A stretch of DNA of 27,635 bases, from contig JAGLIN010000051.1 of the NCBI GenBank assembly GCA_023142975.1, forward strand, positions 1-27,635, given 5' to 3'. The notes under the pieces were generated by a model. The model made no database searches and was not told where the DNA came from. It saw nothing but the letters and a program-made list of their open reading frames with translations. This DNA comes from Candidatus Parcubacteria bacterium. Lineage in GTDB: Bacteria; Patescibacteriota; Minisyncoccia; JAHIHE01; JAGLIN01. Positions within the stretch are counted from its first letter, which is position 1. Each line of letters opens with the position of its first letter. Positions 4,918 to 27,241 of the stretch are shown in pieces. The translations under genes were made by a program, and so were the position numbers.

Positions 4918-5826
4918 ATGTCTTATAAAAAATTTTTGTCTGAATATAAAAAATTTATCTCAGATAAGGAAAATTTTAAAATAATCAGAAAAACTACAAT
5001 AGATTATCCGCACATTCTAAAAAGTAGTAACCGAAGCGCAAAAATCTTAAACAAGATAGCTTTTTTTTCTCAACATGTTTCTAATTCGTCAGTAAAAAGT
5101 AAACAATTTGATATTGTTTTTAAAACATCTATATTTATATCTACGATTGATGATTTAATGGATGACAAACGCATAAAATTTTCTACAAAGGTTGCTCTAT
5201 CAAAAATGCTCATAGCTATCACCAAAAAAATCAAGAATGAAAACGACATCAAAAAATTACTTACAAAAAGCAAAAGTAATGATATGTTATTGCTTAAAGA
5301 AAAGGATCTTCTAAAAATTATTGCCTACATTACAAAAATTATTATTACCGATAAAAATCAAAAGTCATATAATCTTTGGAAAAACAGTTTTGAAAAGTTT
5401 ATTAAAGCTATGCTTTATGAAGAAAAAAATCATATGACCAACTCCATTGAAAGCTATTTAAAAAATGCTCGTTTAAGTATTGGGGTTTCCTTTGTTTTAT
5501 CTTCCTATTTTATGACCAATAAAATTAATTATATATCGCTTAAAAAACTACAAGAACCTCTTGAGGACTTAGATATAATAGTTCGTCTTTCAAATGATAT
5601 TTCCACACACGATATTGACGAAAAAATAGATGCAATAACAATTATTGAATTAAAGAATAAATCCCCTCAATTATATCTGAAAAAATTAATTGAAAAAAAC
5701 CTACTAAATTTAGAAACCAGACTGAGTAATATAGAAATATCTGAAAAGGAAAAATGGACAAAAAAAACAATCAAAGAAACAGCTAACGTTTTAATTCTAA
5801 TTTATAAAAAAAACTTTTTTTCTTAA
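4918..5826 (+). CDS. Class I isoprenoid/terpene synthase-fold protein (terpene cyclase- or ComQ-like prenyltransferase)
   Basis: DDxxD motif (IDDLMDD) and NSE/DTE-like second metal motif (RLSNDISTHDIDE) at the usual spacing. About 300 aa and helical in character. Confidence 0.7.
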   Translation: MSYKKFLSEYKKFISDKENFKIIRKTTIDYPHILKSSNRSAKILNKIAFFSQHVSNSSVKSKQFDIVFKTSIFISTIDDLMDDKRIKFSTKVALSKMLIAITKKIKNENDIKKLLTKSKSNDMLLLKEKDLLKIIAYITKIIITDKNQKSYNLWKNSFEKFIKAMLYEEKNHMTNSIESYLKNARLSIGVSFVLSSYFMTNKINYISLKKLQEPLEDLDIIVRLSNDISTHDIDEKIDAITIIELKNKSPQLYLKKLIEKNLLNLETRLSNIEISEKEKWTKKTIKETANVLILIYKKNFFS

Positions 5827-5877
5827 CAAACTACAACGTAAAATTCAAATTTTAATTTTGCTTGATTTTTATTCTCC

Positions 5878-7005
5878 CTACCACAAATAATCACGCTCTT
5901 TTTTCCAAATCAAAGAAGATTTAAATATCCTAAAAAAGTTTTTTCTTAAATTTGGTTTAGACATAATTATAAATAGTCTTTTCAAAAAAGAACTATTTTC
6001 TTCAAAAATCTTTCCCAGTTCACTCATAACCTCATTATCCAAACTAAATAATATCTCACTCACCTTAAATAATTTCCTATCCGCAAAAGGCATTGCTTTA
6101 ATTTTCGCCTCGTAAGAATCAGGCTTATTTTCCAAAATACATTCCGCCGCTGTTTTTCCTGACATCATCGCTTGCGTCATTCCGCCCTTGAAAATCGGAT
6201 CAGCCAAGCCAGCCGCGTCTCCGACTAAGAACGCTCCGTTTTTGTAAACCTTGCGCCAAGAAGTGCTAAATGGAATATTTCCGCTTCTGTTTTCTAAAAT
6301 TTCGTAATTGCCATAATTTTTCTTTACCGTATTTTCCAAAAACTCGCCAAACTCCTTTGAGAAATTTCCCATACTGCCAATTCCAACATTGGCGGTATTT
6401 TTTGACTTTGGAAAAATCCAGGCGTAGCCATGATTATATTTCTTATTGTCAAAATAAATTTTTGTCGTTTTGGTATCCAATTCCTTTTCAGTTTTTATTA
6501 AATATTCAACAGCGGGAACAAACTTCATTTTATTTTGATTTTCCGGAAAAACTTTTTTTCTAACAATCGAGGACGGGCCATCCGCGCCGATAATGTATTT
6601 TGATTTAAATACTTCCCCGCTTTCAATAACTACTTCCCAAAAATTATTTTCAAATTTTAGATCTGTTACTTTCGCGCTTAGTCTAATCTCCGCTTTGGCA
6701 TCTCGCGCCAAATATTTTTCAAACTTTTCTCGATCAATAACATATCCCATCGCCTCTTCGTGAAACTTGCCGATTATCCTTCCGCTTGGCATTATTTTTT
6801 CCATCTTGTGAATTTTACAAGATATCCACAAATCGTCTGGTTCAATTCCCTGCATCTTCAAAGCGTTCCCGCTAATCCCCTCCCCGCATTGCACTGGCTT
6901 GCCAATCTCTTTTTTCTTATCTAAAATCAAAGCGTCTTTTAAATGTCTCCCCGCTATCAGCCCCGCTGGTCCCGCGCCAATAATAATTGTTTGATATTCT
7001 CGCAT
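5878..7005 (-). CDS. Geranylgeranyl reductase-family FAD-dependent oxidoreductase
   Basis: GAGPAG dinucleotide-binding motif, PVQCGEGI, GYAWIFPK (YxWxFP), LVGDAAG and P..KGGM. Confidence 0.88.
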   Translation of the reverse strand: MREYQTIIIGAGPAGLIAGRHLKDALILDKKKEIGKPVQCGEGISGNALKMQGIEPDDLWISCKIHKMEKIMPSGRIIGKFHEEAMGYVIDREKFEKYLARDAKAEIRLSAKVTDLKFENNFWEVVIESGEVFKSKYIIGADGPSSIVRKKVFPENQNKMKFVPAVEYLIKTEKELDTKTTKIYFDNKKYNHGYAWIFPKSKNTANVGIGSMGNFSKEFGEFLENTVKKNYGNYEILENRSGNIPFSTSWRKVYKNGAFLVGDAAGLADPIFKGGMTQAMMSGKTAAECILENKPDSYEAKIKAMPFADRKLFKVSEILFSLDNEVMSELGKIFEENSSFLKRLFIIMSKPNLRKNFFRIFKSSLIWKKERDYLW

Positions 7006-7035
7006 TATTTATCTTAAGATTTTTATTATGTTTTT

Positions 7036-7046
7036 ATTATAACACA
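7036..7046 (-). promoter_or_regulatory. Extended -10 promoter TGTGTTATAAT
   Basis: TRTG-n-TATAAT consensus 30 nt upstream of the GGR start. The same motif occurs at 12108..12118 and 18990..19000. Confidence 0.55.
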
Positions 7047-7103
7047 AAATAAAAAACGAACCAAAAAATAAGCTGGATTATAACAATCCAACCCGACTTA
7101 ATT

Positions 7104-8375
7104 TTATTCATCTCTTGCTTTTTCCAGATCCTCCGTAACCTGACTTGCCTTTTCCTTTAGCATTTCTGCGTCAGGCTGCATAATTTTCTTGTCATATTGC
7201 GCTTCAACCAGCTTGGTAAAAGCGTTCATTTCATTCTGCGATACTTGAATCATATTGTCAGCGATTACTGTTTTACCACTATCCAAATAATCCAGCGCCT
7301 GATTCGCTTTTGATTCTGCGTTAGTTAATTTTGCCAATAAGGCGTTCTTAATTCCTTGATCAATATCTGAACTATTGACCAGCTCTGCTAACCATTGGAT
7401 TTCCAATTTGGAATATTCGACCATACTTCTTTTGTCCGCCCTAATCTTCAACTCCGCGAATGATGTGTTGCTGACATCCACGTTTGTCTCTGATTTCGCG
7501 TTCACGCTAAAAGTATAATTCACATCTTCCATTCCAGCCCAATTTTCAGGAACGCTTACCATAAGCGGTCTGATTTCCGACATACTTGGATTGAGTTCCA
7601 TATTTGAATTATTGAAAGTAGTCCAAGAACACTGGATAGCTGTAGGATAGCCTCTATAACCTGCGAAGTTTTCCGCTTCAAATGAAACATCATAAACATC
7701 GGCAAGATCGCCTTTGTTTGTAATGTTCACTGAATAAAAAACGGAGTCTTTCGGACTCGCTTCATTTTGAGCTGGAGTTATGTTGACTTCAACGCCATAA
7801 CCATCACTTTCCATATCTTCAATGGCTTTGATGATCGCATCTGAAACATCAGAAGCATCTGGTGACAGATATACTTTCCCGCCAGTTCTTTCTGATATTT
7901 CAGAAAATGCAGCGTAAGTGTCAGGATCAGAACCCACGACAATGCTATATACTCTGATCGGATCTATATTTTCAGACCAGTATGTTACATTATCAAGAGT
8001 ATGACCTCCGTCCCATAGTTCAGGAGCATAAGACTCAGGACCGCCTTGAGGAGGCGCATCACCCATTAAAATTATTGACTTAAAAGCTCCTTCCCTCCAG
8101 CCATAGTTGTCGGGATTGCCAACGCTATCCTTGTCTACATCTAACATATAGACATCACACCGTAAAATGGCACCAAGATTACAAAAGTATGCTAAAACAT
8201 TATCATCTATATCATCATCTCCCACATCATCAATAACAATTTCATTATCCCCATCATCCACCACTGGCGCCTGAACAGGCTCGTCTATCTTCACAAAAAC
8301 AACCCACCCCAAAACCAGCATCGCAACAACCACACTCAACCCTACAAAAATAATTGGTATTGATTTTTTGAACAT
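7104..8375 (-). CDS. Membrane-anchored extracellular protein: N-terminal TM and acidic linker, C-terminal half of a vWA domain, Ig-like (CARDB/NEW3-like) domain, helical tail
   Basis: GWREGAFKSIILMGDAPP, VYSIVVG and SERTGGKVY are vWA strand/helix motifs, but no DxSxS MIDAS strand precedes them. YSVNITNKGDLADVY is Ig-like. Confidence 0.65.
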   Translation of the reverse strand: MFKKSIPIIFVGLSVVVAMLVLGWVVFVKIDEPVQAPVVDDGDNEIVIDDVGDDDIDDNVLAYFCNLGAILRCDVYMLDVDKDSVGNPDNYGWREGAFKSIILMGDAPPQGGPESYAPELWDGGHTLDNVTYWSENIDPIRVYSIVVGSDPDTYAAFSEISERTGGKVYLSPDASDVSDAIIKAIEDMESDGYGVEVNITPAQNEASPKDSVFYSVNITNKGDLADVYDVSFEAENFAGYRGYPTAIQCSWTTFNNSNMELNPSMSEIRPLMVSVPENWAGMEDVNYTFSVNAKSETNVDVSNTSFAELKIRADKRSMVEYSKLEIQWLAELVNSSDIDQGIKNALLAKLTNAESKANQALDYLDSGKTVIADNMIQVSQNEMNAFTKLVEAQYDKKIMQPDAEMLKEKASQVTEDLEKARDE

Positions 8376-8446
8376 AGTTTTAAAATTTTATTATTCTTAA
8401 GTTAAAAATAACAGAGAGTGAAAAATATGTCGATTTATTGAGTTGA

Positions 8447-8887
8447 TTAACTCCCAATCACAACTATTTTCAACTTCCCTTTCAGTTGATCATCGCTTAC
8501 TATTCCAAAAATAATTTTTCCTTGTCCGCCTGATTTTTTATGTATTTTTTCGCCGACTTGTTTTACTTCGTCCATTAACAAATCTTTACCAGCGTAAATA
8601 ATATAGAGAACTTTTTTTAAATAGTCTTGTTTGCTGGTTAAATTGGTTTTGGAAAAAAGATTATTTACGATTGCGGATATTTCTTTTTTTGAACCAGTGG
8701 AATTATTAAAGAATGTTTCGCCGGAATTTTTGACGATGGTTTTTAGATCGGCAAAGTCAACATTGATAACGCCGCATTTGATAATTATATCAAGGATAAC
8801 AACGATGGCGTCGGCGATGATTCTTCTGCTGGAACGGATTTGTAATCCGTTTCTTTTGTTTTGAAGAATAATAAAGATTATTGAAAC
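8447..8887 (-). pseudogene. FtsZ C-terminal domain-only reading frame (no canonical in-frame start; pseudogene, frameshift or non-AUG start)
   Basis: My translation of the 146-codon stop-free frame reads ...RRIIADAIVVILDIIIKCGVINVDFADLKTIVKNSGETFF...KKVLYIIYAGKDLLMDEVKQVGEKI...KIIFGIVSDDQLKGKLKIVVIGS*. This matches the FtsZ T7 loop (GxINxDFAD) and C-terminal domain. Confidence 0.75.
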
Positions 8888-8922
8888 TTAGAAACATTTG
8901 GAACTGGTTACAAACCAGTTCC
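8831..8922. repeat. Pair of related REP-like hairpins in opposite orientation
   Basis: GGAACGGATT-TGT-AATCCGTTTC (8831..8853) and GGAACTGGTT-ACA-AACCAGTTCC (8900..8922). Confidence 0.6.
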
Positions 8923-8956
8923 CGCGTGAATCATTTATTTAATTATCAGTCCAACT

Positions 8957-8986
8957 AAAAACCTGCTTTGATTGAGCAGGTTTTTT
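8957..8986 (-). terminator. Intrinsic terminator after sppA (possibly bidirectional)
   Basis: AAAAACCTGCT-N7-AGCAGGTTTTT, 22 nt past the sppA stop. Confidence 0.75.
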
Positions 8987-9008
8987 AGATGACTCAAATT
9001 TCTATAAG

Positions 9009-9827
9009 CTACTGACATATTTCAATATCCTCGCCGATTTTTCCTCTTAAATATTCCTCCACTTCATATCTCCCGCCAATTCGGTCAATCAAATTATTTT
9101 CTAAAGCCATTTGACCAAGCATGTCTGATCCATCGGCAAGTTCTCTTATTTTTTCAATGTCTATATTGCGATTATCAGAAACTGCTTTGATAAAATTTTC
9201 GTGGAGAATATTAACATCTCGCATCAGCAATTCTTTTTCTTCGGGAGTTAATGGTTTGTCATAATTTCCAGTGTCTTTGAATTTTCCAGCGCTTAATTGA
9301 TTATATGTCAGTCCATCTTTTTCATTTTCTTTGGCATAGTCAAGATAAGACATTGTTATTCCAATACTGCCAACATCAGAATTTTGGGAAGCAAAGATTA
9401 TATCAGCGCCAGTGGCAGACCAATAAGCGGCGGAAAGTCCATATTCTCTGATCAAAGCAACTGTTGGCTTTTTTGTTCTTTTTAATGCATTAGCAACCTC
9501 TTCTGCAGCTACGGGACCTCCGCCTGGCGAGTTTATTTCTAAAACAATGGCTCTGATATTTTTGTTATTTTCGGCTTGTTCAATAGCTCTAACAATATCT
9601 TCTGAAGCGATTTCATCCCAGAGAAGATCTCCGTATTCATTTTGTCCTTCGTTGGAAATGTATGCTATTAAACCTCCTTGGAGTTTTATGTTTGAGACAT
9701 TGCAGGATTTTTCTTTAATATTATCATCTTCAAAAAATAAACAATATTGTTCTGTCCAAAAAGTAATTACTGTTAGGATGAGTATTATAATTGACAATCT
9801 TTTGAAAAAGTATTTTGGTAGTTTCAT
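9009..9827 (-). CDS. sppA: Signal peptide peptidase SppA (peptidase S49, 36K type)
   Basis: N-terminal TM, INSPGG, catalytic SAAYW, GSIG and SAGKFKD. Confidence 0.9.
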   Translation of the reverse strand: MKLPKYFFKRLSIIILILTVITFWTEQYCLFFEDDNIKEKSCNVSNIKLQGGLIAYISNEGQNEYGDLLWDEIASEDIVRAIEQAENNKNIRAIVLEINSPGGGPVAAEEVANALKRTKKPTVALIREYGLSAAYWSATGADIIFASQNSDVGSIGITMSYLDYAKENEKDGLTYNQLSAGKFKDTGNYDKPLTPEEKELLMRDVNILHENFIKAVSDNRNIDIEKIRELADGSDMLGQMALENNLIDRIGGRYEVEEYLRGKIGEDIEICQ

Positions 9828-18214: not shown

Positions 18215-18934
18215 TTATTTTTTAGACAAATAAAACTTCCTCTTTTTTTCTTCAAACCTTTCAATCGCATATCGCAACATCACTCTCGGCATTTTTGAAT
18301 AATGTTTTTTTAAAAATTCCTCTTCAGTTTTCTGATCTCTTTTTCCAACTTCCCGCAGCATCCAACCGACTGCTTTATGAATTAAATCATGCTTGTCGTT
18401 TAATAATATTTTAGCGATTTTTAAAGTATCGTCAAATTCATTATTTCTAATAAAAGCAAATGTGGAAATAATCGCGATTCTTCTTTCCCATAAATTATCA
18501 GATTTTGCTAATTTATAAAGAACATTTCTCGGCTTATTCAACAAGTACTCTCCCATTATTTTCGGCGCGGAAATGTCAACCAAATCCCAGTTATTTATAT
18601 TCTTAGTGTTTTTTAAATATAGCTTAAAAATTTTATTTTTTTCACGCTCATCCCCCTTTTCATATCGCTTAACTAAAACAAACAAAGCTGACATCCGATA
18701 TTCATGAACTTTACTATTTAATAATTTCTCCAAATTTTCCAAAGATAAATCTTCAAATTTTCCAACAACTTTTCTCTGCTCTGGAACTTTGACGCCTAAA
18801 AAAATATCCCCCTCGCCATACTCCCCTTTTCCAGTTTTGAAAAATCTCTGCAAAATTTCCGCTTGTTTTGGATTAGATAATTCTTTCAGTTCTTTTTTAA
18901 GTTGGGTTAGATTTGTTTTTAAATTAAACTTCAT
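18215..18934 (-). CDS. DNA alkylation repair enzyme (AlkD-like HEAT-repeat glycosylase)
   Basis: FFKTGKGEYGEGDIFLGV, INNWDLVD, LWERR and HDLIHKAVGWMLRE. Confidence 0.88.
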   Translation of the reverse strand: MKFNLKTNLTQLKKELKELSNPKQAEILQRFFKTGKGEYGEGDIFLGVKVPEQRKVVGKFEDLSLENLEKLLNSKVHEYRMSALFVLVKRYEKGDEREKNKIFKLYLKNTKNINNWDLVDISAPKIMGEYLLNKPRNVLYKLAKSDNLWERRIAIISTFAFIRNNEFDDTLKIAKILLNDKHDLIHKAVGWMLREVGKRDQKTEEEFLKKHYSKMPRVMLRYAIERFEEKKRKFYLSKK

Positions 18935-19290: not shown

Positions 19291-19731
19291 TCATCTATTA
19301 TAACCAAATTCTTTTAAAAGAAAGTTGATGTGCTTTCTGTAATCTTCAACAAAGCTATCATTAATTATTACCTTTCTATATTTTCCAACTAATGTGAACA
19401 TAAAAATATTTTTAAGATCACTTTTCTTTTCGTCTAAATCCCAATGGGCCATCATATTTCTTGCTCTTTGAATAAACCTTAAAGATTTTTTAATATTAGG
19501 GTAGCCTTTTAATTTTTTAAAATAAGGCAGTGATTCATAAATACTAATTTTATTATCAAAAGTAAGATAAGGAGTATTTATAACATTCCAAAAAAGAATT
19601 GTTGCCTTATTATTACTTTTAGGAAAAAAATACTTTCTTAAGCGATAACCAAGGACAAACTCAACTCTCGTGGCGGATGAAACAACCTCACCTCTAATTA
19701 AATCTAATTTTTCTCTGATTTTTTTATCCAT
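19291..19731 (-). CDS. HEPN-like protein (RxxxxH)
   Basis: RARNMMAH near the C-terminus of a small helical protein, with an N-terminal Glu helix (RVEFVL). Confidence 0.5.
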   Translation of the reverse strand: MDKKIREKLDLIRGEVVSSATRVEFVLGYRLRKYFFPKSNNKATILFWNVINTPYLTFDNKISIYESLPYFKKLKGYPNIKKSLRFIQRARNMMAHWDLDEKKSDLKNIFMFTLVGKYRKVIINDSFVEDYRKHINFLLKEFGYNR

Positions 19732-19740
19732 TTAAAAATA

Positions 19741-19989
19741 TTATTTTATTTGTGTTATTGGAATTTTTGAGTCTCTAAGAAATTTCGTGAGCGTTCTTCT
19801 TTCTGTGCCACTGTTGCTTCCCGAATGTCTTTGTTGCCCAGTTCGTTTATTACAATAGCTAATGAATAGTTTATGACATGCTCTTGTCATTAAAACATAA
19901 AGTAATCTTCGTTCGTCACCCTCTTTGTCTCCTGTGTTTCGTCCGGGAATATATCCATTTTCTGCACCAACTATAAAACATACATCAAA
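19741..19989 (-). pseudogene. C-terminal remnant of a UvrD/Rep SF1 helicase
   Basis: My translation is FDVCFIVGAENGYIPGRNTGDKEGDERRLLYVLMTRACHKLFISY...TKFLRDSKIPITQIK*, covering the motif V tail and motif VI. It lacks a start and the TxHxxKGLE motif. Confidence 0.8.
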
Positions 19990-20084
19990 GTTTGAATGGT
20001 TGTTTTGTGTTGGGAGTATATAAATTTTTTGTGCGTTGGGAGTTATAATATTTACTCAAAATCTTCTATTACTTAAACCTCTTA

Positions 20085-22106
20085 TTATTTGACCAACTTG
20101 CTATCAAAAAAATCAACGATTACGGGCTTATCACAACTTGAACCCTTTCCAACCACAATTGCGCGAAAACGAGGTAAAATACTCATACTATCCAAATATT
20201 TTTGATTAATGTAGGCACTCATAAAAGTTTTTGATGTTTCGTCAAATGATTGTAAAGCAATAATAGTGTGACATTGGTACAAAATCGTTTTTGTAACTAA
20301 TGCTGTCCGTTGAGTAATAATAAGAAAACCTATATTATGCTTGCGACATTTGAGAACCATTTGAGATATTCGACTTACTTTTGGTTGTCCAAACTCTTGT
20401 TTACCAAAAGAGTTTTCCGGAATAAAATCATATGCTTCTTCCATAACAATACATATTTTTTGATTTTCATTTTTAGTTTGGTATCCAATAACTTTTTCGA
20501 TAAGCTCTGCAGTCATATCACTTAAATTGATTGTTCCGCCCCCCTTATCTTTATCTTCGAGTTGCCAATCTACAGAAACGATATTTTTGGTTGCCTTAGA
20601 TAAATCAAACTCGTTAGATTTTTGTTCTTCAGTCAGATCGGTATTGATATAACTAGTGAGCGATTGTTTGTTTTTTCTATCAACTTCAAACACCACAACC
20701 TTATAATCAATTGAGGACATTTTTTCCAAAATTTGTGCGGCCATTCTTGACTTTCCCGTGCCTGTTTTTCCTATGATTGCAATGTGATGACTTACACTCT
20801 CTTCAAAGTCTACAAAAATTGGATATTGTGAGCGCGGAACAATACCAACTTTATAAACATTGTTGTTAGTAATTTTTATTTCTTTTGTTGAAGTTTCAAT
20901 AAACACAGGAGTGTTTACGCTTGGAACCCAGCCGACATCATTAAATTTTTGTTTGTCATCTTGCCAATATCCAATTTGTTGAGCAGTTATTATTTTTCCA
21001 CCCTTTTTACTTTGCCCGTCGATACTCTCCGAATCGGTTTCAACATTAATAATTTGATATTTTGTAGAAGTTTTATAAAAATTTACAGCAATTAAATCAC
21101 CTTCTTTTAATTTCTTATTTTCATCAACATCTTCAATCATTTTTATCTTAATAACATCAATGTCTGAATTAGTATGCACAAACCCTATTATATTATCTCG
21201 GTTTTTATAAACTTCTGAAGACATTATTTCTTCTGGAATATCAAGCTCAATTTTATGGAGATAGATTTGTTTTGCAATATTAATAGTTCCTGAATTTAGG
21301 CAATAAAAATACAGATATTTTTTATTATCTGTTTTGAGCTCAAGAACAAACATCGCATAAATTAAACCTTTCCCGGCGTGCGAATTTTTAATATCATCTA
21401 TAACTGCAATATCACCCAATTTTAAAGTTGGTGATCCTGATGATTGTTCAACATAAACGACATCGGGATTTAATCTCTTAGTAACCCTACCAATCAATTT
21501 TGGTTTAGTTCTGTCCCTGATTTTTTCATATAGAGGAGTAATTAGTTTTTTATCAATTGGCTCAACAAGAATTAACATTCCCCAAAAAACAATTAGCGAT
21601 AAAACAGCTACTTGTTCTTTGTTAATTAAAAAATTGTTTTCCAAAGATGAAATGAAGTAACTAAAAATAGAAAGGATAAAAACTATTGAAAATAACATTT
21701 TGGAACTACCTAAAAAGCTTGCTATTAGATTTGCAGAATGGGCAACTTTTTGCGATAAAAAATTCCGGTCTTTTTCTTCATCTATCAAAACAAATGAAAG
21801 GAACGCTATTGCACCAACCAACAAAGAATAAATGAAAAGTGGCCAATAGAGCAGGAATTGACCAATATTTTCAAGCATTGATAAAACAACAAGAAGAAGA
21901 ACGATATTAACTATTACATCGAGTGATTTGGTAAAATATTTTTCTGTAACAAAAATACCAAGTACAATCAACAATAGCCCACTTGTAAACCAAACTTCTG
22001 CGTCCTTTCCTAAATCTATAAAAAATTTGTCTATCAATAGAAATTTAAGTACAAATAATATTCCAGCAAAAACAAATAAATAGATTAGGTTTTTTAATTT
22101 ACTCAT
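20085..22106 (-). CDS. HerA/FtsK-superfamily (DUF87) ATPase with N-terminal multi-TM domain and HAS-barrel-like regions
   Basis: About 6-7 TM helices, Walker A HIAIIGKTGTGKS, Walker B VMEEAY, and RKHNIGFLIITQR. Confidence 0.85.
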   Translation of the reverse strand: MSKLKNLIYLFVFAGILFVLKFLLIDKFFIDLGKDAEVWFTSGLLLIVLGIFVTEKYFTKSLDVIVNIVLLLVVLSMLENIGQFLLYWPLFIYSLLVGAIAFLSFVLIDEEKDRNFLSQKVAHSANLIASFLGSSKMLFSIVFILSIFSYFISSLENNFLINKEQVAVLSLIVFWGMLILVEPIDKKLITPLYEKIRDRTKPKLIGRVTKRLNPDVVYVEQSSGSPTLKLGDIAVIDDIKNSHAGKGLIYAMFVLELKTDNKKYLYFYCLNSGTINIAKQIYLHKIELDIPEEIMSSEVYKNRDNIIGFVHTNSDIDVIKIKMIEDVDENKKLKEGDLIAVNFYKTSTKYQIINVETDSESIDGQSKKGGKIITAQQIGYWQDDKQKFNDVGWVPSVNTPVFIETSTKEIKITNNNVYKVGIVPRSQYPIFVDFEESVSHHIAIIGKTGTGKSRMAAQILEKMSSIDYKVVVFEVDRKNKQSLTSYINTDLTEEQKSNEFDLSKATKNIVSVDWQLEDKDKGGGTINLSDMTAELIEKVIGYQTKNENQKICIVMEEAYDFIPENSFGKQEFGQPKVSRISQMVLKCRKHNIGFLIITQRTALVTKTILYQCHTIIALQSFDETSKTFMSAYINQKYLDSMSILPRFRAIVVGKGSSCDKPVIVDFFDSKLVK

Positions 22107-22176
22107 ATTTATAAGCTAATTTAAATCCAAAAATTTCCAATCTTTTAGATCGTTTGAATTACAAAAATATTTGTCG

Positions 22177-23742
22177 TTACTGTTTAAATATAAACTCTTC
22201 TAATTCTTTATAGGCGTCTGTGTCTGAAGTTATATATTCTGATAATTTAATTTTGAAATCGTTTATATTACCAGAATATCCGCAAACATGTTGAATATCT
22301 TGTTGTATCGACTTCAAATCTTGATTAATGATATCTGTAATTTTACTTTCATATTTCAATTCGTCAAAATTCGTACCTTTCCCAAAATGATATTTTTTTA
22401 ATATTTCTTTATCAAAAAGATAATTCTCGATCTCATGTCTCTTTAACATCCTATTCATGCTATTATCATCTAAGAAACCCTGTCTTTGTTCTTTTGTTTT
22501 TTTATCACGATCTTTTAATAAATAAAGTTCAACATCTTTAAATGCCTTATTTAGTATTTGCAATGCTACTACAGAATATCCATCCGATTCTTTGTTACCC
22601 CCGCTCGAAACAAAAAGTGTATCTGGATGACTTACAGAAAAAATTTGATTATAAATTGTTGCGTCCAATCCTTTTTCATCTCCATTCTCATCAGAACTCT
22701 TTTCGCCTTCGCAATAAATTATTTTTTTAGGAGCTAATAAACCAGTCAGATCTTCTAGCGCAGTTTTAAATATACGATGCCAATTATCTCGTGTCGTCGC
22801 AATGGGCTTTATTTCCACTGTACCATTAAAATAATCTTTTACCGAAAAATCTAATATTGATGACTTATCTTTTAGTTCTTCTTGTAATGCTCTCAAAAAC
22901 CCAATGCTGTGTGTAGCTATCCAAAGCTGACAATTATCTGGCACTAATTTTTCTATCTCAGTCAAAAGTTTCCTTTGAATTGCTGTATTGAGGTGTAATT
23001 CTGGTTCGTCTATACAATAAACCGTATTGTTAAAATCAGGTGTTTTTATTACTAAATCAATAATAATATCAACAACTTCTTTTTCGCCCGAAGACAAATT
23101 TTCGTAAGGGAAATTTTTAGAGTTTTCTTTTTCAAAAAATAATTGTCCCTTACCGTCACCAACATTGCCAAGACTAGACACTTTTACATCTAAAATATTT
23201 TCTAAAATTTTGTTGATTTTTTCTAAAAATTCTTTCTTAAATTCCGTTCCTGTTTTGTTCCCTTGCTCAAATTCATATAACAATCTTGATAACAGCCTCT
23301 CATAATTACTTTGCATACGAGAATCTATCGCATTGCTACTATATGGTCGGTTATGATCCTCAATAATATCAGGCTGGGCTTTTATGCTGTCTACTTTTAA
23401 TTTTGGAGTGAATCTATACGCTGACCTGATATAAAAACTTTTTTTGTCAAAATTCGTTGCTCCACCTCCTTCGGTTATTATTATTGATTCATTTTTGTTA
23501 TAACTTTCTAATCTTTTCTCTGGAAAAATTGAGTGCCATAATTTTGAAAAATAAGAAGCATGCTCATTTTGACTTGCTCCTTTATAATCTTTCAATTTTT
23601 CTTCAAAAGCATCAAAGACACTGCTTTTCCCGCATCCATTTGGTCCAACCAAGGCAATAATTTTTTTTGAATTATCTCCAAGGTTTATTATTAGATCGTC
23701 AAATCTTTTAAAATTTTTTAATCTGACTGTTTTTAATTTCAT
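22177..23742 (-). CDS. OLD-family ATP-dependent nuclease (ABC ATPase + TOPRIM)
   Basis: GPNGCGKS, LSSGE signature, IDEPELHL, ATHS, and TOPRIM YCEGE and DRD. Confidence 0.82.
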   Translation of the reverse strand: MKLKTVRLKNFKRFDDLIINLGDNSKKIIALVGPNGCGKSSVFDAFEEKLKDYKGASQNEHASYFSKLWHSIFPEKRLESYNKNESIIITEGGGATNFDKKSFYIRSAYRFTPKLKVDSIKAQPDIIEDHNRPYSSNAIDSRMQSNYERLLSRLLYEFEQGNKTGTEFKKEFLEKINKILENILDVKVSSLGNVGDGKGQLFFEKENSKNFPYENLSSGEKEVVDIIIDLVIKTPDFNNTVYCIDEPELHLNTAIQRKLLTEIEKLVPDNCQLWIATHSIGFLRALQEELKDKSSILDFSVKDYFNGTVEIKPIATTRDNWHRIFKTALEDLTGLLAPKKIIYCEGEKSSDENGDEKGLDATIYNQIFSVSHPDTLFVSSGGNKESDGYSVVALQILNKAFKDVELYLLKDRDKKTKEQRQGFLDDNSMNRMLKRHEIENYLFDKEILKKYHFGKGTNFDELKYESKITDIINQDLKSIQQDIQHVCGYSGNINDFKIKLSEYITSDTDAYKELEEFIFKQ

Positions 23743-23833
23743 AATTTCATAAATTATATTTTGCTTAAAACTTCCTTTAAACTCCCGCTATTCAAAACAT
23801 ACTTATAATTAAATTTTTTAACTTCGATTGATA

Positions 23834-24931
23834 TTATTTCCCGGACTTAATTCTATTACACTCTTTGCACAACATCTTACAATTTTTTTCTACTGTCTTT
23901 CCACCTTCATGCCATGGTTTAATATGATCACCTTCCATTTCTCCTATTTCAAAATGTTCTTTGCAGTCTTTGCAAATTCCTTTTTGCTTTTCATAAACTT
24001 TCTGTTTCATAGCATCAGAAAAAGCGCGAATTGAAAGTTTTCTTTCATCTTTTGTTAAAATATAAGGATAAATCCCTTTTTTATTTTCCACATCATCATC
24101 CGCTATCAACATAGCAATTTCTTTTTCAATTACTTCTGTGTCATACACCTCATTCTTAAATTCATTATACAGCGTTCCCCAATCAACACCTCTCATAAAC
24201 TTTACTCTTTTTACTGTGAAAGTCGCTTCAATCCATGAAATCACATCTTGAAAATATCTCCACAAAGCGCTTGCATTTTGGTCGTGCTGATGTTTAGACA
24301 TATAGTCCTCTATTTTTCCATCGGAAATCCATTTGATAGCAGTTTCTAAATATTCTTGGCGAATTGGAGACCCATTCAAATAATCACTTCCTATTCCATA
24401 AGCGGCACAACCATTTTTACTAAAATAGCGCTTAGCGTCAGTAACCCACGGACCTGAATATACTGCATTTTTCAATTCTTGGTCTGTTAGTTTTTCTCCC
24501 GCAATATTAATTATTTTAAACCATTCCAATTTTTCGCTATCACTGCCCGAGCAAAAGTATATTGTTAATTCATAATTTAGTATTTGCTCTTTTTTGTCAT
24601 CGGGAAGATTGTGAAACGCTAATTTGTTTCCTGAAAAATCTACTGAAAAATCTCCTTCAACATACTGACAAACTGAAATTGTTCGTTGTTGTCCATCAAT
24701 AATCTCAAAACCGCCATCTTCACGGACTGCCCAATACATCACATTAAGAGGAAACTCTTTTGTAATAGTATCAATAACAGCATCTCTTTGTTTGTCTTTA
24801 TAAATAAATTCTCTTTGGTACGGTGGGCGGATATCAAGTTTGCCACCATAACCAACAACACCATTTTCATCGTTGTCCTCAAAACCATTCGTTAATTCAC
24901 GGACTGTAATTTTTTTAAGTTCTATTTTCAT
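23834..24931 (-). CDS. DUF262 (GmrS-like) + HNH endonuclease, probable restriction component
   Basis: RPPYQRE, DGQQR and C-terminal CKDC...DHIKPWHEGG...LCKECNRIK. Confidence 0.88.
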   Translation of the reverse strand: MKIELKKITVRELTNGFEDNDENGVVGYGGKLDIRPPYQREFIYKDKQRDAVIDTITKEFPLNVMYWAVREDGGFEIIDGQQRTISVCQYVEGDFSVDFSGNKLAFHNLPDDKKEQILNYELTIYFCSGSDSEKLEWFKIINIAGEKLTDQELKNAVYSGPWVTDAKRYFSKNGCAAYGIGSDYLNGSPIRQEYLETAIKWISDGKIEDYMSKHQHDQNASALWRYFQDVISWIEATFTVKRVKFMRGVDWGTLYNEFKNEVYDTEVIEKEIAMLIADDDVENKKGIYPYILTKDERKLSIRAFSDAMKQKVYEKQKGICKDCKEHFEIGEMEGDHIKPWHEGGKTVEKNCKMLCKECNRIKSGK

Positions 24932-24933
24932 AT

Positions 24934-26052
24934 TTATTTTATTACTTTTTTATTTCTAATAATTACACGGGCGTATATGCTCATGTATAATTCTCCAGTT
25001 TCCACATTTTTAAATTTGGGATATTTGTCTTTCTCGGGATTATATAAACGATATAAAGTTCCTTTTGCATTATTTGTGAATTTTCCCGTTGATTCTCCGT
25101 CTTTTAATATTTCCATTCTTTTGTTGCAAATAAAATCAATAGAACCAACTATACCAAGAGCTATGATCTCAAACTGACCAGGATTATATTTATCCATAAA
25201 AGTGATGGGTACGCCCATTGCACCCTCATAGTCCATCGGAATATCTTTTGTAACATCTATATTAATCGCGTCATAATTATCATATTTTGGATATTTATCT
25301 TCGTTTCCATAATATGTTTTATAAAGGATTAAATCTTCGTGTCTTTCTTTATAATCTAAATTAGTATACCAACGAACCCCCTTAACTCTAATGTATTTAT
25401 TTCCATTTTCATCAATCCTACTACTAGCTGCGGTAAGTGGGTAGTCTTTAGGAACCCCAAACTCTCTATCACCGCTATGAATACTTGCTCCTAACCACAT
25501 CTTATTTTTTTTTATTAATTTAAATATTTCTTTATAGGTCAGTGCATTTAAATTTCCAATTATTACAAACTTTTTGTCGTGCTTAATTAGTTGAGCAACA
25601 TATTCTCTGAATAAAGAAAATGGTGGGTTCGTGACAACAATATCGGCTTGTTTCAAAAGTTCTAGACTTTCCTCACTCCGAAAATCTCCATCACTTCTTA
25701 AATGTTCAATTCCAATTTCTTCAAGATCAGGAACATAGTTTTCATTTTTATCTCCTTCATATTCTAAATAAATTGCTTTTTCAGAATCGTTTTGACTAAA
25801 TAAATCTACTTGCTGATTTTTATAACAAGTTGTAATTAATCTCTTCAGTCCCAATTTTTCAAAGTTATAAGAAAAGAAATGAAAAAAATTACTTACACGA
25901 GGGTCATCGCAATTACAATAAACAACTTTATTTTTAAAGTGTTTTCTGTAATGTTTTAGTTCTTTTTCAATATCAACCAGCTGAGTATAAAACTCATCTT
26001 TTTTAGCCTTGCTTGCATTGCGTAAATTTTTGTTTGAAGATATATTTGCCAT
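24934..26052 (-). CDS. Adenine-specific DNA methyltransferase, EcoRI family
   Basis: KKDEFYT, VYCNCDDP, DIVVTNPPFSLFREY and MGVPITF. Confidence 0.9.
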   Translation of the reverse strand: MANISSNKNLRNASKAKKDEFYTQLVDIEKELKHYRKHFKNKVVYCNCDDPRVSNFFHFFSYNFEKLGLKRLITTCYKNQQVDLFSQNDSEKAIYLEYEGDKNENYVPDLEEIGIEHLRSDGDFRSEESLELLKQADIVVTNPPFSLFREYVAQLIKHDKKFVIIGNLNALTYKEIFKLIKKNKMWLGASIHSGDREFGVPKDYPLTAASSRIDENGNKYIRVKGVRWYTNLDYKERHEDLILYKTYYGNEDKYPKYDNYDAINIDVTKDIPMDYEGAMGVPITFMDKYNPGQFEIIALGIVGSIDFICNKRMEILKDGESTGKFTNNAKGTLYRLYNPEKDKYPKFKNVETGELYMSIYARVIIRNKKVIK

Positions 26053-26173: not shown

Positions 26174-27241
26174 ATGAGTAGAAAAGATAATAAAATTCAA
26201 TATTATTTAGACGAGGATTATTTATTTCTGACATTAAAATTATTAGATTATCCCAAAATGGAAAGGGGTGAGTTTACTTTTGATGAAATAAAAGCAGAAA
26301 ATTATAAACGCGCAGCGGTATCAAAAATTTTCTACGATATTGCGAATTTCAGAAACCAGGGTTTGCTGAAAATTGAGAATTTCAAATTAAATAATAGTGA
26401 CTATGCAACTACTAAAACATTAATATTAGCGATGGTAAAATTTCCTAAACATAAACTATCATTAACTCTAAATAAAATAATAAACAATAATTTTAATTTT
26501 TATGATCTTGAAATCGTTTCATCTTATAAATGCAATGATCAAGTTTTTAATTTGATTGATTTTGATATTAAAATCAGCAGAGAATCTAAGCAAATAATTA
26601 CCGATGCTCTGCAAAAATATTTAAAATTATTTGCTGATGAAGAAATAGAATCTCCGAAAAAAAACTATCTTAGAATTGAATTTCAGAAAGAAAACATTAA
26701 AAAGAAAATTGATGAGATTAGTAGAAAAACCGGACACTCTTTGGTATTAAAGAGTTCCGATTTTAATAACGAGCATAGATTTTTAGAAAGTATACTTTTA
26801 TTGGAAAGAGAAAGATTTTTAATTATAAAAAATATTAGCAGTGAAAAAAATAGGGAAGATTTATTTAACTATTTAATTAATTGTGAATCAAGAGAAAAAA
26901 GATACTCTCATCCTCCATTCTATGTTATCAAAAAAGACATGGGATTTTTAAAATTCAGTAAAAATGGAAAAGCAATAAAAATTGGCAAAACAGATTCTCA
27001 ACATTTTAGACTTTTGAAACTTTTATTAAAACCCTTTAGGAAGAAAAATGGAATTAATTATGTTTTTGAAAAGATAGAGACTAAAAGAATAAAAAAGTAT
27101 CCAGAATCAGATCTAGATGATCAAATGCGAAAACTTGAATATGTGGTAAAGGAACTTCAAAAAAAGAAAAGGTTAGGAGGACTGCTTAAAATCACTCTTG
27201 ACAAAGAAATGGAAACAATATGGATTGATTATACAAAATAA
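26174..27241 (+). CDS. Hypothetical protein with possible C-terminal winged-helix DNA-binding region
   Basis: Long ORF. The C-terminal segment (LKFSKNGKAIKIGKTDSQHFRLLKLL...LEYVVKELQKK) resembles OmpR-like wHTH regions; function is inferred only. Confidence 0.55.
   Translation: MSRKDNKIQYYLDEDYLFLTLKLLDYPKMERGEFTFDEIKAENYKRAAVSKIFYDIANFRNQGLLKIENFKLNNSDYATTKTLILAMVKFPKHKLSLTLNKIINNNFNFYDLEIVSSYKCNDQVFNLIDFDIKISRESKQIITDALQKYLKLFADEEIESPKKNYLRIEFQKENIKKKIDEISRKTGHSLVLKSSDFNNEHRFLESILLLERERFLIIKNISSEKNREDLFNYLINCESREKRYSHPPFYVIKKDMGFLKFSKNGKAIKIGKTDSQHFRLLKLLLKPFRKKNGINYVFEKIETKRIKKYPESDLDDQMRKLEYVVKELQKKKRLGGLLKITLDKEMETIWIDYTK

Follow-up and report, generated by a model that had tools for sequence, protein, structure and literature searches.

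The defence array at positions 19291–26052 on the minus strand of contig JAGLIN010000051.1 from Candidatus Parcubacteria bacterium (assembly GCA_023142975.1; the whole 27,635-nt stretch is referred to below as the window) is probably a restriction operon behind which second-line modules, acquired independently, have been stacked, and not one multi-gene system. It consists of five intact co-oriented open reading frames (ORFs) and the tail of a UvrD-like gene (Table 1), namely, a DNA methyltransferase (MTase) and a restriction endonuclease (REase), followed by genes that we call OLD-like, HerA-like, and HEPN-like. Each of the latter three independently favours restriction–modification (R-M) operons, standing behind or inside those of Types I, II, and III. 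The original prediction, made from the sequence of the window, had seen here a layered locus of restriction and abortive infection that might contain a new system, since the combination of OLD-like, HerA-like, and HEPN-like genes matched none known. The layered locus of the abortive-infection type stands, whereas the new multi-gene system does not; the membrane-anchored HerA-like gene stays a candidate new single-gene module.

Independent assortment of the genes

Co-occurrence across genomes, the check set beforehand for the claim of a single system, found the genes to assort independently. The gathered HerA-like loci comprised 15 loci from genomes, one from a metagenome (L016), three more from Patescibacteria, and one from a plasmid; the metagenome scan for HerA-like relatives was keyed on a generic P-loop pattern and gave one useful locus, L016. 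When the window's six proteins were compared by tblastn with the 15 genome loci and four further HerA-like loci, only the HerA-like gene was found. The same search of eight full-length OLD-like loci yielded only the OLD-like gene and an unrelated AlkD, with no HerA-like, UvrD, or HEPN-like gene, and that of seven HEPN-like loci only the HEPN-like gene, the HerA-like gene and the window's OLD type being absent. The 21 HerA-like loci are all without homologs of the OLD-like, MTase, REase, and HEPN-like genes of the window, and the five-gene combination occurs in none of the 36 related loci. Owing to this independent assortment, the idea of a single system formed by the OLD-like, HerA-like, and HEPN-like genes does not hold.

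This largely refutes the notion that all five genes are one methylation-associated system resembling MADS or Menshen, in which the OLD-like and HerA-like genes would be two effector branches. Such a system would explain the co-orientation and close spacing of the genes; there are weak PADLOC matches to mad3 (2e-21), mad8 (8e-13), NsnA (2e-26), and NsnB (4e-19), and MADS does join a methylase, an OLD-like module, and a second ATPase–nuclease module (PMC13662399). However, other models score far better (REase_II, 1e-137; AriAB, 3e-37; HerA, 7e-23), the NCBIfam profile antiphage_MADS3, at 21.7 bits, falls far short of its cut-off of 420, and the array holds no mad1, mad2, mad4, mad5, mad6, or mad7 and no equivalent of NsnC. 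Taking all this into account, we regard such a system as scarcely credible.

Table 1. Genes and gene remnant of the array in the window.
Feature	Length, aa	Position	Strand	Basis
EcoRI-family Type II DNA adenine methyltransferase	372	24934..26052	-	Pfam, PADLOC profiles
Type II restriction endonuclease, DUF262 (GmrSD_N/ParB-like) with C-terminal HNH	365	23834..24931	-	PADLOC, Pfam
Single-chain ABC ATPase with TOPRIM, nearest to merged PARIS (AriAB), OLD superfamily	521	22177..23742	-	Profiles, AF2, Foldseek
Membrane-anchored HerA-type ATPase	673	20085..22106	-	DUF87, PADLOC HerA, Foldseek
UvrD-like SF1 helicase C-terminal remnant, not a gene	81	19750..19992	-	PF13361
Small Rx4H (HEPN-like) protein, probable RNase, mobile single gene	146	19291..19731	-	Rx4H motif
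AF2, AlphaFold2; SF1, superfamily 1.

The restriction–modification pair

The MTase matches the Pfam profile EcoRI_methylase (PF13651) over its full length with an E-value of 3e-142, and the PADLOC model MTase_II with 2.5e-129. The REase, whose start lies 2 nt past the MTase stop, is covered end to end by the PADLOC model REase_II (PDLC03418; 1e-137, residues 1–364 versus profile positions 1–371/372) and contains the Pfam domains GmrSD_N (4e-16) and HNH (1.5e-11); a sequence search of the PDB with it gave an HNH match only. Homologs of the REase occur on at least 50 plasmid records from very diverse bacteria, many of them abutting an EcoRI-family MTase, which is annotated immediately ahead of the REase homolog; for example, the two genes are adjacent or overlap on plasmids of Sulfitobacter, Aeromonas, and others. 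In the two plasmid loci with annotations of both R-M genes, they likewise abut or overlap, and the accessory genes are absent. Judging by these matches, the MTase and the DUF262–HNH enzyme are a genuine, mobile Type II R-M pair, found repeatedly by itself on plasmids, in agreement with the original prediction.

The OLD-like gene

The OLD-like protein matches AAA_21 (8e-20) and AAA_15 (2.4e-17), and its best defence model is PADLOC AriAB (3.3e-37, residues 120–516). Walker A, the signature, Walker B, and the H-loop of ABC ATPases are all present, the family conserving GPNGCGKS, LSSGEKE, IDEPELHL, and THS, and, in the C-terminal third, YCEG, KDRD, and REIENYLF. In Foldseek searches, the AF2 model (predicted local distance difference test score, pLDDT, 77) aligned over about 600 columns with GajA (8u7i/8sm3), the retron Eco8 effector (9lpa), and OLD from Thermus (6p74) at E-values from 1e-9 to 1e-11; the global TM-scores are low, 0.27–0.32, which we take to reflect a differing orientation of the domains. 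Sequence searches of the PDB gave P-loop-level matches only. The family is very large (3723 matches, many of them 55–74% identical across phyla) and has no name of its own. By profiles and model, the best description of the gene appears to be a merged PARIS/OLD-type single-gene ATPase–TOPRIM.

Its neighbourhoods vary. In another Patescibacteria genome (L030, 51% identity), the OLD-like gene is flanked by hsdR and hsdM within a Type I operon; a Zymomonas plasmid has it alone, surrounded by toxin–antitoxin genes; and a viral contig has it next to pAgo-like and Type IIG genes. PARIS is known in the form of single-gene fusions, is triggered by the anti-restriction protein Ocr (PMC9122126; PMC11464382), and acts by tRNA cleavage (PMC11464382). 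As the trigger of PARIS is an anti-restriction protein, the place of the OLD-like gene behind an R-M pair is functionally sensible.

The UvrD relic and the HEPN-like gene

The first four ORFs of the array are separated by gaps of 2, 91, and 70 nt, which confirms the spacing and the five-gene-plus-remnant layout described originally, and 353 nt separate the fourth from the fifth. This larger gap holds an in-frame UvrD C-terminus (PF13361 UvrD_C, 3.7e-09, the last 50 profile positions) that has a stop codon upstream, no usable start codon, and no ORF of at least 60 aa. The end of the relic and the HEPN-like start are 20 nt apart, suggesting that the two probably arrived together. No intact helicase–HEPN pair with this HEPN-like family was found in the HEPN-like loci examined.

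The 146-aa protein carries the Rx4H motif R91-N-x-M-A-H96, with R91 and H96 invariant in 20 homologs, and has 205 homologs with 70–93% identity across phyla, none of them with a Pfam domain. It matches no Pfam (even at E 0.1), PADLOC, or NCBIfam model, and its nearest named atlas clusters, MtlR (0.86) and DUF4145 (0.84), both lie under the 0.9 level and serve as leads only. The predicted HEPN identity is thus supported by the motif and not by a match at the level of a family, and the label, drawn from the invariant Rx4H and the weak atlas neighbours, is plausible. No homolog was found in searches of plasmids and phages, nor any relative of this gene or the HerA-like gene in scans of viral contigs.

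Of the seven other HEPN-like loci, five have a methylase or Res gene ahead of the HEPN-like one in the same orientation. This is in line with the literature, where at least 16 HEPN clades have been linked to R-M systems, and links of HEPN to SF-I helicases have also been documented (PMC3710099). In L077 (576–6225), a serine recombinase, an N6/N4 MTase, a MvaI/BcnI-family REase, and a 621-aa OLD-family ATPase–TOPRIM are followed, 10 nt downstream, by the HEPN-like homolog; this is the order of the window minus the HerA-like gene, assembled from different R-M and OLD families. An ancestral operon of the type “UvrD + HEPN” or “OLD + UvrD + HEPN” was considered and found no confirmation in these loci, the partner in L077 being the OLD-family protein and not a helicase, and the other HEPN-like loci having neither.

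The membrane HerA family

The HerA-like protein matches DUF87 (1e-11, residues 419–547) and PADLOC HerA (7e-23), while its N-terminal part of about 410 aa is unannotated. The AF2 model built from 53 homologs (pLDDT 75) has seven N-terminal helices (2–197), two beta-barrel domains (203–285 and 306–403), and a RecA-like ATPase (417–673), and hydropathy gives six to seven membrane segments within residues 4–186. Both Walker motifs, A (GKTGTGKS) and B (MEEAYDF), are intact. The best Foldseek matches are SIR2–HerA (8woc, 3e-18), HerA–NurA (9x1m), DUF4297–HerA (8ziq, 2e-16), and SsoHerA (4d2i), with E-values from 1e-16 to 1e-18. The membrane domain is unusually conserved (invariant W39, G43, T54, E55, T59, Q119, and others in 53 sequences), which suggests a role beyond anchoring.

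With a profile built on the first 410 residues, 637 representatives at 50% identity were collected (401 of them at E ≤ 1e-10), nearly all 650–760 aa long and of the same layout; an atlas search with the membrane domain gave no usable match. Full-length relatives with 40–87% identity are spread over many phyla, and those on plasmids are distant only (under 28% identity). The closest relative with a gene context is L016 (85% amino acid identity), where the upstream gene is Type III Res-like instead of OLD-like. Aligned at the DNA level, the window and L016 become similar within some 40 nt ahead of the HerA ATG and lose this similarity about 15 nt short of the stop. Hence the HerA-like gene is a one-gene cassette, as the homology is confined to the ORF. 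No gene for a NurA, SIR2, or DUF4297 partner was found in the window or in any of the 21 HerA-like loci; similarly, neither SIR2 nor DUF4297 was found in the window proteins, in the individually annotated HerA neighbours elsewhere, or among the 25 commonest families of 106 neighbour ORFs. The membrane HerA family is uncharacterised, belongs to no named system, and is the sole novel element of the array. Thus, the absence of a known counterpart, originally claimed for the whole combination, holds for this gene and not for the OLD-like one, which is of a known kind.

One member of the family, P0347 (1273 aa), has a C-terminal extension of about 550 aa in which PD-(D/E)XK-like motifs (IDIEIDEPY, GTYLHEQIE, IVDWKRSKK) were noticed by eye and which matches none of the neighbour ORFs. 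If the nuclease reading is correct, this would be fusion evidence for a link between HerA and a nuclease.

Association of membrane HerA with restriction–modification genes

The HerA-like gene lies directly downstream (from an overlap to a 22-nt gap) of R-M genes of differing kinds: a Type II AlwI-like REase in L001, an MTase/BsaWI-like REase/MTase set in L002, Type I hsdR with hsdM/S in L004 and L006, Type III mod-res in L005 and L016, and a C5 methylase with a DUF4145 protein in L024. In L025, it is embedded in a Type I operon (order hsdM-HerA-hsdS-SoFic-hsdR); in L003, it is divergent from a LexA-fused C5 methylase; in L010, it has an Mrr-like nuclease downstream; and in L023, an N6/N4 methylase is 1.5 kb away. 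A distant relative on an Arcobacter plasmid (L027, CP146529.1, locus 5250–9529) is within a Type I R-M operon.

Among the 106 ORFs located no more than 3 kb from the HerA-like gene (18 loci), a Pfam scan placed R-M families first (ResIII, 5; N6_N4_Mtase, 4; C5 methylase, 2; N6_Mtase, 2; Methylase_S, 2; D12, 1). The identified R-M proteins, used as phmmer queries, matched 15 of these 106 ORFs, in nine loci, and two of the 127 ORFs at least 4.5 kb from the gene in the same loci (Fisher p = 2e-4), an imperfect control, as the queries were drawn from the near set, with non-self R-M genes still detected. At least seven of the 21 HerA-like loci have no R-M gene within 3 kb. On the maximum-likelihood tree of 19 HerA homologs, the R-M type is scattered: the labels need 5 changes versus a shuffled mean of 4.4, and the sister pairs of the window with L016 (II and III; 99/100) and of L024 with L025 (II and I; 98/89) differ in type. 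Such a lack of agreement between tree and R-M type speaks against a specific R-M protein partner; the scatter is compatible with an autonomous gene that gains from co-expression, or with one responding to a generic signal.

These data bear on the idea that membrane HerA is functionally coupled to restriction, being an R-M-dependent guard that uses restriction-made ends or senses the loss of restriction. The gene does closely adjoin or overlap R-M genes, whether of Type I, II, or III, and in one operon is inserted between hsdM and hsdS, the near/far enrichment points the same way, and PrrC in EcoprrI is a precedent for an R-M-coupled accessory (PMC3710099; bioRxiv 10.1101/2024.01.29.577857). 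Yet neither the tree nor the loci free of R-M genes fit such dependence, and PARIS, the best-studied anti-anti-restriction system, works without R-M (PMC9122126). We consider the coupling unlikely.

Membrane-anchored members of the FtsK/HerA superfamily are typically DNA translocases. Membrane HerA might then be not an immune protein but a DNA pump of a mobile element (FtsK/TraB/Ced-like), hitch-hiking in variable regions beside R-M genes; weak NCBIfam matches to CedD (1.5e-07) and TraC/TraD, serine recombinases near L009 and several other loci, and a type IV secretion system (T4SS) pilin-like gene in the window are consistent with this. On the other hand, no conjugation or transfer genes stand beside HerA in the loci examined, where the immediate neighbours are defence genes, and the gene moves singly, is absent from the scanned viral contigs, and has only the distant plasmid relatives mentioned above, which makes the pump highly unlikely.

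Several neighbourhoods hold further genes of interest. The Type I operon of L027 contains, as one group, a gene with a SLATT domain, one for a 765-aa DUF87 protein whose membrane N-terminus is similar, and one for an “RNA-binding domain” protein. In L025, the SoFic-type Fic protein (5504–6646, minus strand; PADLOC, 1e-118) means that the Type I operon holds two different inserted accessory genes. The 522-aa protein of L003 (8202–9770, minus strand) fuses a LexA DNA-binding domain, an S24 peptidase, and a C5 DNA methylase (PF01726, 5.5e-17; PF00717, 3e-29; PF00145, 6e-93), and a methylase that cleaves itself and responds to SOS would be unusual. In four loci, the gene right after the HerA-like homolog is of nuclease type, namely, in L004 (8887–9822), L005 (6314–7063), L006 (12061–12975), and L010 (12143–13078), with DUF4268, PDDEXK_1/Cas4-like, DUF5655, and Mrr_cat domains, respectively; two of the four overlap the HerA stop, and they show no detectable mutual relationship. 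They could be a variable effector slot or a coincidence.

Proposed roles of the genes

What the analysis shows directly are the identities of the genes, the folds of the OLD-like and HerA-like proteins, the independent assortment, and the repeated position of each accessory gene behind or within R-M operons; the activities and triggers of all the array genes we infer from their families, homologies, and models. By family membership, the EcoRI-family methylase would mark host DNA, and the DUF262–HNH enzyme would cut unmarked incoming DNA. By homology with PARIS, the ABC ATPase of the OLD-like protein is probably a sensor that detects a phage product, e.g., an anti-restriction protein, and would then release the TOPRIM nuclease, halting the infected cell. 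The HerA-type ring ATPase would be tethered to the membrane, with its six-to-seven-helix domain replacing the SIR2, DUF4297, or NurA partner. More speculatively, the ring would most likely be activated by foreign DNA or DNA ends and might act via the membrane domain, be it to make the membrane permeable (abortive infection) or to move DNA. The UvrD tail would be a relic of a displaced helicase gene, and the HEPN-like protein downstream is a probable RNase.

As regards this single gene, membrane HerA may be an unrecognised, widespread single-gene immune module found on all R-M types, its membrane domain being the effector and restriction-exposed DNA ends or foreign DNA the trigger; we offer this tentatively, as one of the less likely possibilities.

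Several points weigh against the reading of the array as a restriction operon with stacked independent modules. Besides the imperfect near/far control, the co-orientation, the short gaps, and the lack of a predicted terminator mean that the genes may be co-transcribed and could cooperate here despite their independent assortment elsewhere. MADS is a methylation-based precedent that holds both an OLD-like module and a second ATPase–nuclease module, MAD7–MAD8 (PMC13662399). The Pfam models DUF4435 and OLD-like_TOPRIM do not match the OLD-like protein at E ≤ 0.01. Finally, six HerA homologs from outside Patescibacteria form a well-supported clade without a classical R-M neighbour, the R-M association being concentrated in clades hosted by Patescibacteria; some of the signal may therefore stem from defence islands rich in R-M genes in tiny genomes.

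The stacked-module reading, which we continue to favour, corrects a tempting over-reading, as a neat row of co-oriented genes is not in itself a system. The array is an example of three unrelated accessory defence genes each using R-M operons as a landing site, and it extends the idea of embedded defence to Type II and Type III operons and to the ultra-small genomes of Patescibacteria. The membrane HerA family comprises 400 or more clusters at 50% identity, belongs to no named system, and offers a concrete single-gene candidate for cloning. Should the gene prove protective against phage, it would follow that HerA rings can act via a fused membrane domain and not a soluble NADase or nuclease partner; if the membrane-effector reading is true, sensing of DNA by a HerA ring would be coupled to a membrane response in a new way. 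The novelty is modest, consisting of the membrane-HerA family and of three independent R-M add-ons stacked in one place.

Other features of the window

The window makes up an entire contig of a genome of 0.96 Mb (95% complete), and therefore the right edge of the island is not visible. A promoter and terminator scan of the array performed no better than on shuffled sequence, with no terminator predicted between the window genes, and a short direct repeat at 20009–20047 has no further copy in the window and is within chance. Divergent from the methylase, a 355-aa ORF (26174–27241, plus strand) has no Pfam or PADLOC family match and a faint, sub-threshold match to the tRNA-intron lyase EndA (E 0.006; 16.5 bits, the cut-off being 59.6). 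A gene for AlkD-type DNA alkylation repair is located at 18215–18934 of the window and at 1449–2138 of L030, 58% identical between the two Patescibacteria genomes and in both a few kb from an island of R-M and OLD-like genes, which may be a shared integration hotspot.

Comparison with known systems

Several named systems were considered for the array. Gabija consists of OLD-like GajA and UvrD-like GajB, and the window likewise has an OLD-superfamily ATPase–TOPRIM gene and a UvrD-type sequence on the same strand. It was rejected, as the UvrD sequence is a relic on the far side of the HerA cassette from the OLD-like gene, the best PADLOC models do not include GajA, and the OLD-like homologs elsewhere have no UvrD neighbour. 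MADS (an operon of eight genes, mad1–mad8) and Menshen (NsnABC, with NsnB comprising ABC and DUF3696) were rejected on the scores and lacking genes given above, the mad3 and mad8 matches being below those of AriAB and HerA, and the NsnA and NsnB matches far under those of REase_II and AriAB.

The OLD-like protein shares with PARIS (merged AriAB; Rousset 2022, PMC9122126; Burman 2024, PMC11464382) a single chain in which an ABC ATPase (AAA_15/AAA_21) is followed by a probable TOPRIM-type domain with conserved acidic residues, and with class 1 of the OLD family the single-chain ATPase and TOPRIM, the fold, and the defence contexts, including those inside R-M operons. In contrast to PARIS, it is compact, and DUF4435 and OLD-like_TOPRIM are undetected.

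The fold of beta-barrel and RecA-like ATPase and the defence-island context are common to membrane HerA and SIR2–HerA (Nezha/Gao19), DUF4297–HerA, and archaeal HerA–NurA. Unlike these, membrane HerA has no partner gene, has a fused and conserved six-to-seven-helix membrane N-terminus, and travels alone.

The 146-aa protein resembles the R-M-linked HEPN clades, e.g., DUF4145 (Anantharaman 2013, PMC3710099), in being a small, presumably helical Rx4H protein whose homologs are downstream of R-M genes in most loci, and differs from them in having no match to an existing HEPN Pfam model.

The closest parallel to the whole array is given by embedded-defence operons, where accessory genes lie in or behind R-M, BREX, or Hma operons: PrrC in EcoprrI, TgvAB in the Type I R-M system (T1RM) of V. 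cholerae, BrxU, and HEC-01 to HEC-09 (PMC11411939; Payne 2024). Defence genes embedded in R-M operons have been described as independent systems (bioRxiv 10.1101/2024.01.29.577857), and, like the add-ons of the window, they are exchangeable between R-M types and read as second-line or complementary defence. Membrane HerA is not among the candidates of Payne 2024, as the preprint makes no mention of HerA, DUF87, or membrane proteins. In contrast to these operons, the window stacks three different add-ons behind one Type II pair.

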